Shown here one piece after another: positions 17,861-19,118 of a DNA stretch of 64,000 nucleotides. The position numbers and the translations under genes were made by a program. The DNA lies in sequence record OP279344.1. One strand, 5' to 3'. The notes beneath the pieces were generated by a model. That model was not told the DNA's origin and ran no database searches. It was given only the letters and a program-made list of their open reading frames with translations. Position 1 is the stretch's first letter, and every line of letters starts with the position of its first letter. This stretch comes from Escherichia phage P1.

Positions 17861-18673
17861 CTATTTTAATTCTATGTAGTTTTTAAATTCTCCCTCATAT
17901 TTATACATGATGCTATCAAATCCTTCCATTACATCAACGAATTGTTGTGAACATTCCGGCTTCCAAGGCGTACACTTACGAACCATATCCATTTTATTCT
18001 TATCCTTCGTTGTATCGACTAAGGATAGGTACCCTATAAAATTCATCATCTGAACAGGATCTTGATTTGTGAATATATATTTGACGTTTTGCTTAGTAGG
18101 TGAAAAAGAATCAAAAGCAGGGAACATATATTCACCAGAAAAAGAGAGTGCAGCATCAATGACGTCTGTTGCTGGAGTGCAGTTGCTCAGAATTGGCACT
18201 AAGCTAAAATTAGCACCGGAGCACACTGCATATATATCATCCCCTTTTTTTAGTTTTAACAGAGAGTCTTGCTTTGAATCCAATATTTTCAATTTGATAT
18301 AATTTAGTGGCGTTGCATTTTCCCCTGGAGTAAATAATTCTACAATTGGTTTATTATTCACCATTCTTATGGATTTTATTTCACCATACACAATTGGAAT
18401 TGTGTTCCATTTTTCCTGAGCAGCAAATTCATTATCTTTAAAATCATTAACCAACTCAGATGGCAAATGATAACCAAATTGATTGTTCATTGCTTTCGAA
18501 GCAAATCCAGACAAATAGAATGCCCTTACTAAATCATAATCTTTCTTTGAGGTAGAAAGCCAATCTGGCAATTTATTATCAGCTATCGCGCTTCCAGCAA
18601 AAATAGCACAACAAAATGTTATTACATTAAATAATTTCATTTTCCATTCACTCATTAATCGGTTTAAACTCAC
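17861..18673 (-). CDS. Secreted protein, 270 aa (sim-like, candidate superinfection-exclusion protein)
   Basis: N-terminal signal peptide (KLFNVITFCCAIFAGSAIA); AT-rich; last gene of a three-gene minus-strand operon at the position of P1 sim. Confidence 0.5.
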   Translation of the reverse strand: MSLNRLMSEWKMKLFNVITFCCAIFAGSAIADNKLPDWLSTSKKDYDLVRAFYLSGFASKAMNNQFGYHLPSELVNDFKDNEFAAQEKWNTIPIVYGEIKSIRMVNNKPIVELFTPGENATPLNYIKLKILDSKQDSLLKLKKGDDIYAVCSGANFSLVPILSNCTPATDVIDAALSFSGEYMFPAFDSFSPTKQNVKYIFTNQDPVQMMNFIGYLSLVDTTKDKNKMDMVRKCTPWKPECSQQFVDVMEGFDSIMYKYEGEFKNYIELK

Positions 18674-18983
18674 TAATTAATTCACCAAGACTATTTGGGT
18701 ATGCTTTATAAATAACATACTCCGAAGAGCCATCTGAATATTGGTAAACCCCATAACAGACCAGTTTATTTATTCCTTTCTGAATAGTTTTTTGATTATA
18801 AGAATCAACCACTGTTATTCCATATGACGATAATATTTCGTTATATTCTTCAATAAGAGCTTTTCTTGTTTCCACTGAATTGCAATCTACCTTCGAAAAG
18901 TCAACTTCATCAGCAAAAACATTAAATGTTAAAAAGGAAAGCACTAAAAACAAACGAATCAGCATAAATCCACTCCTACGCAT
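18648..18983 (-). CDS. Secreted protein, 111 aa (sim-like operon)
   Basis: Signal peptide (MLIRLFLVLSFLTFNVFA); 26-nt overlap with the downstream gene. Confidence 0.45.
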   Translation of the reverse strand: MRRSGFMLIRLFLVLSFLTFNVFADEVDFSKVDCNSVETRKALIEEYNEILSSYGITVVDSYNQKTIQKGINKLVCYGVYQYSDGSSEYVIYKAYPNSLGELISEFKPINE

Positions 18984-18986
18984 GGA

Positions 18987-19118
18987 TTAATAGTCATTGA
19001 TCGCAAAGGCGTAAACGTGCCCAAGGTATTTCGTATAATCGGTACAAATCTCCTTTACGCTTGATGCTGCATTAACAGTCCCAGCCATAAATAATAACGG
19101 TAGTAATAGTTTTCTCAT
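18987..19118 (-). CDS. Small secreted peptide, 43 aa; first gene of the sim-like operon (not in the ORF track)
   Basis: AGGTGAGG RBS 5 nt before ATG; MRKLLLPLLFMAGTVNA signal peptide; stop 3 nt before the next start. Confidence 0.4.
   Translation of the reverse strand: MRKLLLPLLFMAGTVNAASSVKEICTDYTKYLGHVYAFAINDY

Follow-up and report, generated by a model that had tools for sequence, protein, structure and literature searches.

The Imm and Sp (spackle) proteins of phage T4 are envelope proteins that block DNA entry by superinfecting T-even phages. Other exported entry blockers are encoded by prophages or plasmids, among them T5 Llp, phi80/N15 Cor, TP-J34 Ltp, and TraT of the F plasmid. Here we set against these systems the simABC superinfection exclusion operon of Escherichia phage P1, as it lies in a stretch of 64,000 nucleotides (nt) from sequence record OP279344.1 (the window; positions count from its first letter). 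Like Imm and Sp, Sim is phage encoded, is predicted to lie in the envelope, and is reported to act after adsorption, with a narrow spectrum. This likeness is one of function, taken from published work and general knowledge; we detected no sequence or fold relationship to the T4 proteins, SimC being predicted to consist of an oligonucleotide/oligosaccharide-binding (OB) fold with helical extensions. Sim shares export and a prophage or plasmid origin with Llp, Cor, Ltp, and TraT, but Llp and Cor prevent adsorption by blocking an outer-membrane receptor; Sim is reported to act later. Unlike the lipoprotein exclusion factors, SimA, SimB, and SimC have no lipobox cysteine at the cleavage site. Secondary sources describe Sim as excluding P1 and a few other phages once they have adsorbed, and suggest that it may keep DNA from reaching the cytoplasm. 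Papers of 2019 and 2021 still call the mechanism unknown, in line with an earlier sequence-only reading of this DNA.

The identity of the locus is essentially certain: it is the long-known and annotated P1 simABC operon. A 1,601-nt query (17700-19300) is 100% identical to P1 records AF234172, AF234173, and NC_005856, with the same position and gene order, and the simC, simB, and simA annotations of the P1 record fall under the match (in the sim region, the window coordinate is the P1 record coordinate minus 28925). Over the first 25 kb of the window, alignment identity to P1 is 99.8%. The sequence-only reading had guessed the sim locus and proposed a comparison with P1 simABC, which leaves no sequence difference. 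The P1 record labels simC “superimmunity” and simB and simA each “putative superimmunity accessory function” (YP_006511-YP_006513). The first open reading frame (ORF), which the reading called unlisted, is absent only from ORF lists with a length cutoff; GenBank and RefSeq annotate it in a 52-amino-acid (aa) form as simA (YP_006513), and the exact 43-aa form carries the accessory-function name in other database records. The original 1990 sim sequence (GenBank M34382) is 99.1% identical to window 17700-19300, and the P1 record gives 98% identity and 11 gaps for it. Since the translated ORF1 of M34382 shares just 85% identity with SimB, frameshift errors are probable in the older SimB sequence.

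The locus, annotated at the same coordinates in the P1 record, is thus textbook P1 biology, and nothing in the locus itself is new. What we add are corrected starts for the three genes, a truncated origin for simA, the modularity of simB-simC, and a fold assignment for SimC. Taken as a whole, an account in which simABC combines a truncated simA with a periplasmic SimB-SimC entry block seems to us on balance probable. Its parts differ in strength: periplasmic interception of P1 DNA entry after adsorption is likely, and we are unsure of the specific target of SimC and of what SimB and SimA do.

We favor starts shorter than those of the P1 annotation (43 instead of 52 aa for SimA, 105 instead of 111 for SimB, and 259 instead of 264 for SimC) on the grounds of Shine-Dalgarno pairing and of the forms recorded in databases. 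At the simA ATG at 19118, the 16S rRNA 3′ end is predicted to pair at −9.7 kcal/mol versus −1.9 at the annotated 52-aa start; the downstream simB ATG at 18965 has −6.9 versus +0.3 at the annotated one. Among database records, the exact 43-aa SimA occurs on 447 contigs and the 52-aa form on 11; the 105-aa SimB occurs on at least 1,000 contigs and the 111-aa form on 2; the 259-aa SimC occurs on 891 and the 264-aa form on 8. In one Escherichia albertii plasmid, the annotated 52-aa simA ATG reads ATT and the 43-aa start is intact. Relatives of SimC all start at MK(L/I), and the homologs and most database calls of SimC begin at MKLF, which makes the 270-aa GTG start unlikely. These patterns suggest that the P1 reference annotation places all three starts too far upstream. 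The three tandem minus-strand ORFs of the sequence-only reading (43 aa from 19118, 111 aa at 18983-18648, and 270 aa at 18673-17861) are all present, and AGGTGAGG precedes the first of them at 19131-19124, as it had noted. Its 43-aa simA start beats that of GenBank, but its simB and simC are probably too long. Its 3-nt simA-simB junction and simB/simC overlap hold for the ORFs as listed; with the better-supported starts, simA and simB are separated by 21 nt, and simB and simC by 7 nt (TGA, 7 nt, ATG).

Comparison with other phages and plasmids indicates that P1 simA is very likely the truncated 5′ end of a gene for an exported protein of 179 to 215 aa, of which about 40 residues are kept. Several lines of evidence lead to this view. 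First, the match of SimA to PHROG 3933 (213 positions) is confined to profile positions 1-41 and does not extend over the family's full length. Second, SimA clusters in databases with “SimA domain proteins” of 215 to 224 aa (family range, 179 to 224), and full-length homologs occur in phage vB_EcoM-Ro157c2YLVW and in contigs L004, L005, and L014. At the site between its pmgC homolog and c4 operator, Ro157c2YLVW encodes a 215-aa exported protein whose residues 1-36 are identical to SimA, followed by a 158-aa exported protein; L014 (GCA_005690115.1), a distant P1-like contig, has a full-length 179-aa version directly upstream of SimB and SimC homologs. Third, DNA identity between P1 and Ro157c2YLVW begins on the c4 side, continues across simA, and fades at 18979-18990, right at the simB ribosome-binding site. 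The TAA stop of P1 simA aligns there to a GAA codon, and MRRSGF, encoded by the six extra N-terminal codons of the 111-aa SimB, aligns with SMRKK of the long protein. Fourth, a tblastn search with the long SimA-type protein matched 267 plasmids, 84 of them over its full length; P1-type plasmids match over residues 1-47 only, reading past the simA stop codon. Fifth, C25 and C104 are kept in every full-length form, and P1 SimA has C25 only. The truncation and the full-length relatives are new here. They indicate that the tiny first peptide of the sequence-only reading comes from a truncated gene and is not a dedicated microprotein.

How the truncation arose is less clear-cut. An internal deletion of the long gene ahead of simB appears at least as likely as cassette replacement; the idea that simA is debris left when simB-simC replaced a cassette is weakened by the full-length A-B-C operon in L014. 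We also set aside the claim that counts of site changes show neutral or relaxed evolution of simA. The pairwise count that had suggested it (8 nonsynonymous, 2 synonymous) is not made of independent changes, and the ratio from distinct segregating sites in 26 loci, 0.47 (5 nonsynonymous, 3 synonymous), is close to those of simB (0.36) and simC (0.29). In the carrier L017, simA codon 2 has lost one nucleotide, at 19113.

The two downstream genes behave as a co-conserved pair that is exchanged between P1-like phage-plasmids as one piece, together with its terminator, an observation that is also new here. In L004, a P1-like contig from the Logan assemblies, the module comprising simB from codon 4, simC, and the terminator stands in a different neighborhood: a gene for a 107-aa two-helix membrane protein takes the place of simA, and simB-simC is followed by intact genes for the 215-aa and 158-aa proteins. 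SimB is 92% identical in L004 and 61% in L014, where SimC is 39% identical; in both contigs simB remains adjacent to simC, and the TGA, 7-nt, ATG junction is identical in P1, L004, and L014. Between P1 and L004, the proportions of nonsynonymous and synonymous differences (pN/pS) are 0.031/0.179 in simB and 0.072/0.190 in simC, so that both genes appear to be under purifying selection. SimC thus diverges faster than SimB in both comparisons, as would be expected if SimC carries the specificity. The 107-aa protein of L004 (209-532, plus strand; two predicted membrane helices) had no match in Pfam, NCBIfam, or PADLOC searches; its gene could be another exclusion or accessory gene.

The site itself is a hotspot for exchange of cassettes. 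Of the 481 P1-like plasmids matching the region, 136 carry the full P1-type sim region; the others break at discrete points and bring in other exported cargo, including a long SimA-type gene with a YfjT-like gene, a P7-type pair, and a DUF4760 cassette (in one plasmid, a DUF4760 protein and two small ORFs). The P7 cargo (L003:2153-3217) consists of the lipoprotein Upf50.5, with a weak TraT-like and glycine-zipper match, and Upf50.0 (DUF5384). Unrelated exported cargo is also found there in L006 and L008 (2564-4358). This swapping agrees with a published survey that counts simABC among eight variable regions of low GC content in P1-like phage-plasmids. In a CRISPR interference screen, simA, simB, and simC were all dispensable for plaque formation. 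The SimC protein cluster has 777 members, and natural disruptions exist: a 1-nt deletion at 18143 splits simC in phage vB_EcoM-813R1 (L011), a 13-nt deletion (18297-18309) occurs in one IMG/VR contig (L035), and two database proteins (P0003 and P0004) are SimC chimeras or truncations after about residue 100 to 115. The L014-type operon had no near match in PLSDB; in that contig, a YhaV/PrlF toxin-antitoxin pair (732-1528) lies close to antirepressor genes.

SimC is nearly an orphan by sequence. A search of 1.84 billion representative proteins gave 15 matches, full-length only at 84%, 39%, and 28% identity, and scans of species-representative genomes and IMG/VR found only relatives of at least 95% identity, in Escherichia. 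Pfam, NCBIfam, and PADLOC gave no significant direct match for SimA, SimB, or SimC; no PADLOC-DB defense model matched these proteins or those of the alternative cassettes at an E value of 0.1 or below, and a PDB sequence search with the SimC profile returned chance-level matches only. The way in is through distant, partial relatives. SimC finds P0021 by phmmer at E = 9.6e-9 (in the 1.84 billion proteins), and P0021, P0023, and P0024 score 53.8, 25.9, and 43.7 bits against PF12869, the tRNA_anti-like OB-fold family, all above its gathering threshold. By hhalign, SimC residues 61-157 fall in PF12869 with a probability of 96.9% (E = 1.4e-10), and the best structural match of the SimC model, which is of moderate confidence, is 3f1z. 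SimC is thus predicted, from profiles and model together, to contain a PF12869-type OB fold with a helix before it and a helical C-terminal domain after it, an assignment that is new here. The family includes 3f1z, a Klebsiella “putative nucleic acid-binding lipoprotein,” and the C-terminal domain of TcdC; residues 61-157 can be aligned with it and the Cys pair is conserved. SimC differs from its members in having no lipobox or membrane anchor and in carrying two additional helical domains, one N-terminal and one of roughly 100 aa at the C terminus. We came across no recorded exclusion function for PF12869 members.

For SimB, which has one conserved cysteine pair, structure prediction gives a cystatin/NTF2-like alpha+beta roll, also new here; the model came from a shallower alignment that left out the L004 and D6 sequences. 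Phage D6 encodes a 298-aa exported protein (orf79, L007:3348-4244) with a SimB-like domain of 52% identity in which both cysteines are kept. There the domain is fused to an unrelated C-terminal region of 160 residues and lies at another genomic position, and D6 has no SimC. We considered orf79 as a SimB-SimC fusion and rejected this, since those 160 residues have no similarity to SimC.

All three products are predicted to carry Sec-type signal peptides cleavable by signal peptidase I, as the sequence-only reading had supposed. A rule-based scan (charged n-region, hydrophobic h-region, small residues at −3/−1) places cleavage at VNA|A after residue 17 of SimA, VFA|DE after 18 of SimB, and AIA|DN after 20 of SimC, with mean Kyte-Doolittle h-region values of 2.3 to 2.7 (2.35-2.67). 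No lipobox ([LVI][ASTVI][GAS]C) was found at the end of the signal peptide in any of the three. Cysteines are absent around the cleavage site in SimA and SimB; SimC has C10 and C11, but position −1 is occupied by F and C, respectively, and both cysteines are absent in the homolog P0014. Mature SimC has four cysteines, conserved in relatives, and SimB two conserved ones; the two conserved cysteine pairs of SimC would fit an oxidizing periplasm. Maillou and Dreiseikelmann are said to have reported a processed, exported Sim protein in 1990.

From these features we propose how Sim may work. SimC would be exported by Sec, cleaved after Ala20, and disulfide bonded. In the periplasm, it would bind, through its OB-fold surface, something that is exposed only during injection, candidates being the ejected tail-tip/Sit apparatus or the DNA itself, and the genome of the incoming P1 would thereby never reach the cytoplasm. 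SimB may be a conserved periplasmic partner that stabilizes or positions SimC. P1 simA would not act as a protein; it may mainly supply a promoter, a ribosome-binding site, and upstream translation for simB-simC.

Several points weigh against this account. Secretion and a binding partner are predictions here, and exclusion is taken from the literature. SimC itself scores 19.0 bits against PF12869 (E = 1.1e-3), below the gathering threshold of 23.5. The AlphaFold model of SimC has a predicted local distance difference test (pLDDT) score of 64.6, with about 55 to 65 in the OB region; that of SimB has 68, and its other four models are much lower. The simA gene is intact, with Shine-Dalgarno sequence and ATG retained, in 24 of the 25 carriers where it can be read. 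Its segregating-site ratio is indistinguishable from those of simB and simC, so that a loss of simA function is not demonstrated, and the full-length gene directly upstream of the simB and simC homologs in L014 means that the three families could work together. Finally, the DNA of a phage with a contractile tail travels inside a tube, so that DNA lying free in the periplasm is an improbable target.

The points that concern simA lead to the alternative that survives best, although we consider it unlikely: all three exported products, the 43-aa SimA included, may be subunits of one periplasmic exclusion complex, the truncation having kept the essential part of SimA. The L014 arrangement, the presence of the long gene beside simB-simC in L004, the retained start region in carriers, and a ratio that is not clearly neutral would all suit such a complex. 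However, simB-simC in L004 is preceded by the membrane-protein gene, with no simA in front, and the long SimA-type gene occurs without simB-simC in at least 84 plasmids and in phage Ro157c2YLVW. A shared cargo hotspot may be enough to explain the co-location. In addition, more than 75% of the protein is missing from the P1 peptide, and with it Cys104, the conserved partner of Cys25. Four of the five SimA replacements among sim carriers (K3R, S20R, G33W, and H34Q) fall at residues invariant in all full-length homologs, S20, G33, and H34 thus varying among truncated alleles, and the NCBI pipeline calls no simA in three RefSeq plasmids.

A second alternative, which we regard as quite improbable, keeps SimC as the effector but has it trap incoming phage DNA directly in the periplasm through the OB fold, rather than bind a phage or host protein. 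What speaks for it is the type of fold, that of the PF12869 “tRNA_anti-like / putative nucleic-acid-binding lipoprotein” group, and the published in vitro binding of single-stranded and G-quadruplex DNA, at about 30 nM, by the related domain of Clostridioides difficile TcdC. We identified no nucleic-acid-binding residues in SimC, and OB folds bind proteins and oligosaccharides too. The myovirus DNA would be expected to remain inside the tube or channel, unexposed. The reported spectrum, limited to P1 and a few other phages, fits protein recognition better than generic DNA binding. The third alternative, that the cassette holds envelope-modifying accessory genes for host fitness or defense against unrelated phages or colicins, with multicopy “superimmunity” a side effect, is highly improbable, given that published genetics assigns P1 exclusion to sim and that simB and simC are both common and under purifying selection.

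Table 1. Features of the sim region and its flanks in the window, with the starts preferred here and their alternatives.
Feature	Position	Strand	Description
simC	17861-18640	minus	259 aa + stop; predicted signal peptide 1-20, helix, PF12869-like OB fold ~61-157, helical C-terminal domain
simC, alternative starts	17861-18655 (GenBank); from 18673	minus	264 aa from ATG 18655 (GenBank); 270 aa from GTG 18673 (sequence-only reading)
simB	18648-18965	minus	105 aa + stop; predicted signal peptide 1-18, then 87-aa domain
simB, alternative start	18648-18983	minus	111 aa from ATG 18983 (GenBank)
simA	18987-19118	minus	43 aa + stop (stop 18987-18989); predicted signal peptide + 26 more residues
simA, alternative start	18987-19145	minus	52 aa from ATG 19145 (GenBank)
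simA Shine-Dalgarno sequence	19124-19131	minus	AGGTGAGG; 5 nt upstream of ATG 19118
Mobile simB-simC module	17780-18956	minus	89.6% identical over 1,177 nt to L004, different neighborhood there
Promoter-proximal region and 5′ end of long SimA-type gene	18979-19176	minus	94.5% identity to Ro157c2YLVW, 87% to L004
Intrinsic terminator-like hairpin	17797-17826	minus	AACGCCC-ATTAAA-GGGCGTT, downstream of simC, T-rich tail
PsimA, predicted sigma-70 promoter	19183-19209	minus	GenBank annotation (record 48108-48134)
C1 operator Oc4 (formerly Op51)	19215-19231	plus	AATGCTCTAATAAATTT; controls divergent c4 promoter P2c4

The surroundings of the operon (Table 1) bear out the sequence-only reading, which had described an AT-rich region with a hairpin terminator at its end and a C1 operator in the divergent promoter region. 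The operon forms an AT-rich accessory cassette that has the tail-gene block (pmgC) on one side and the c4-icd-ant region on the other. Annotation, ORF map, and operator search agree in placing simABC between the pmgC/LPsit side and the Oc4-c4-icd-ant immunity region, divergent from c4; past Oc4, the P1 annotation lists P2c4/P1c4, c4 RNA, icd, and ant1/2 running divergently. GC content is 0.30 to 0.37 over 17600-19400 versus about 0.46 to 0.50 in the flanks (simA, 0.38; simB, 0.31; simC, 0.34; whole window, 0.475). The terminator stem has 7 bp, 5 of them G-C pairs (17826-17807), followed by TTATTGTTTT.

Oc4 has one mismatch to the C1 consensus and is one of 14 such sites in the window, where chance would give 0.3. 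The 13 further matches, with 0 to 3 mismatches, are spread over 20885-63940 and include a convergent overlapping pair at 40354-40381, which fits the dispersed operator network of P1. Since Oc4 overlaps the −35 element of P2c4 but is set 5 bp ahead of the predicted −35 of PsimA, repression of sim by C1 is not evident from the layout, and expression of sim in a lysogen would be expected. PsimA was not recovered by a simple promoter consensus scan. Between its predicted −10 and the simA Shine-Dalgarno sequence, a T8 run at 19176 varies in length by one base, in 7 of 26 sim carriers. The P1 record also has predicted sigma-70 promoters within simC (P2pmgC and P3pmgC, 17910-18073) and within simA (PsimB, 19118-19146). 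Two adjacent ArgR-box-like sequences in simC, and another where simA meets simB, were predicted in a published scan (PMC2409434).

The question of how Sim blocks infection dates from the 1980s, and the predicted fold of SimC gives it a concrete handle. An OB fold with cysteines that may form disulfides, a simB-simC pair that travels together, and a simA that is probably truncated direct attention to SimB-SimC and to the ligand of the OB fold. It is conceivable, though we give the idea little weight, that SimC is the first functionally characterized member of a wider class of exported phage PF12869-type OB-fold proteins that block genome entry outside the cytoplasm. If so, that class would take in the “tRNA_anti-like / nucleic-acid-binding lipoprotein” proteins that many siphoviruses encode, along with TcdC-like proteins from the lysogeny-switch regions of Gram-positive phages, and the SimB domain, which in D6 is fused to a different C-terminal domain, would be an adaptor.

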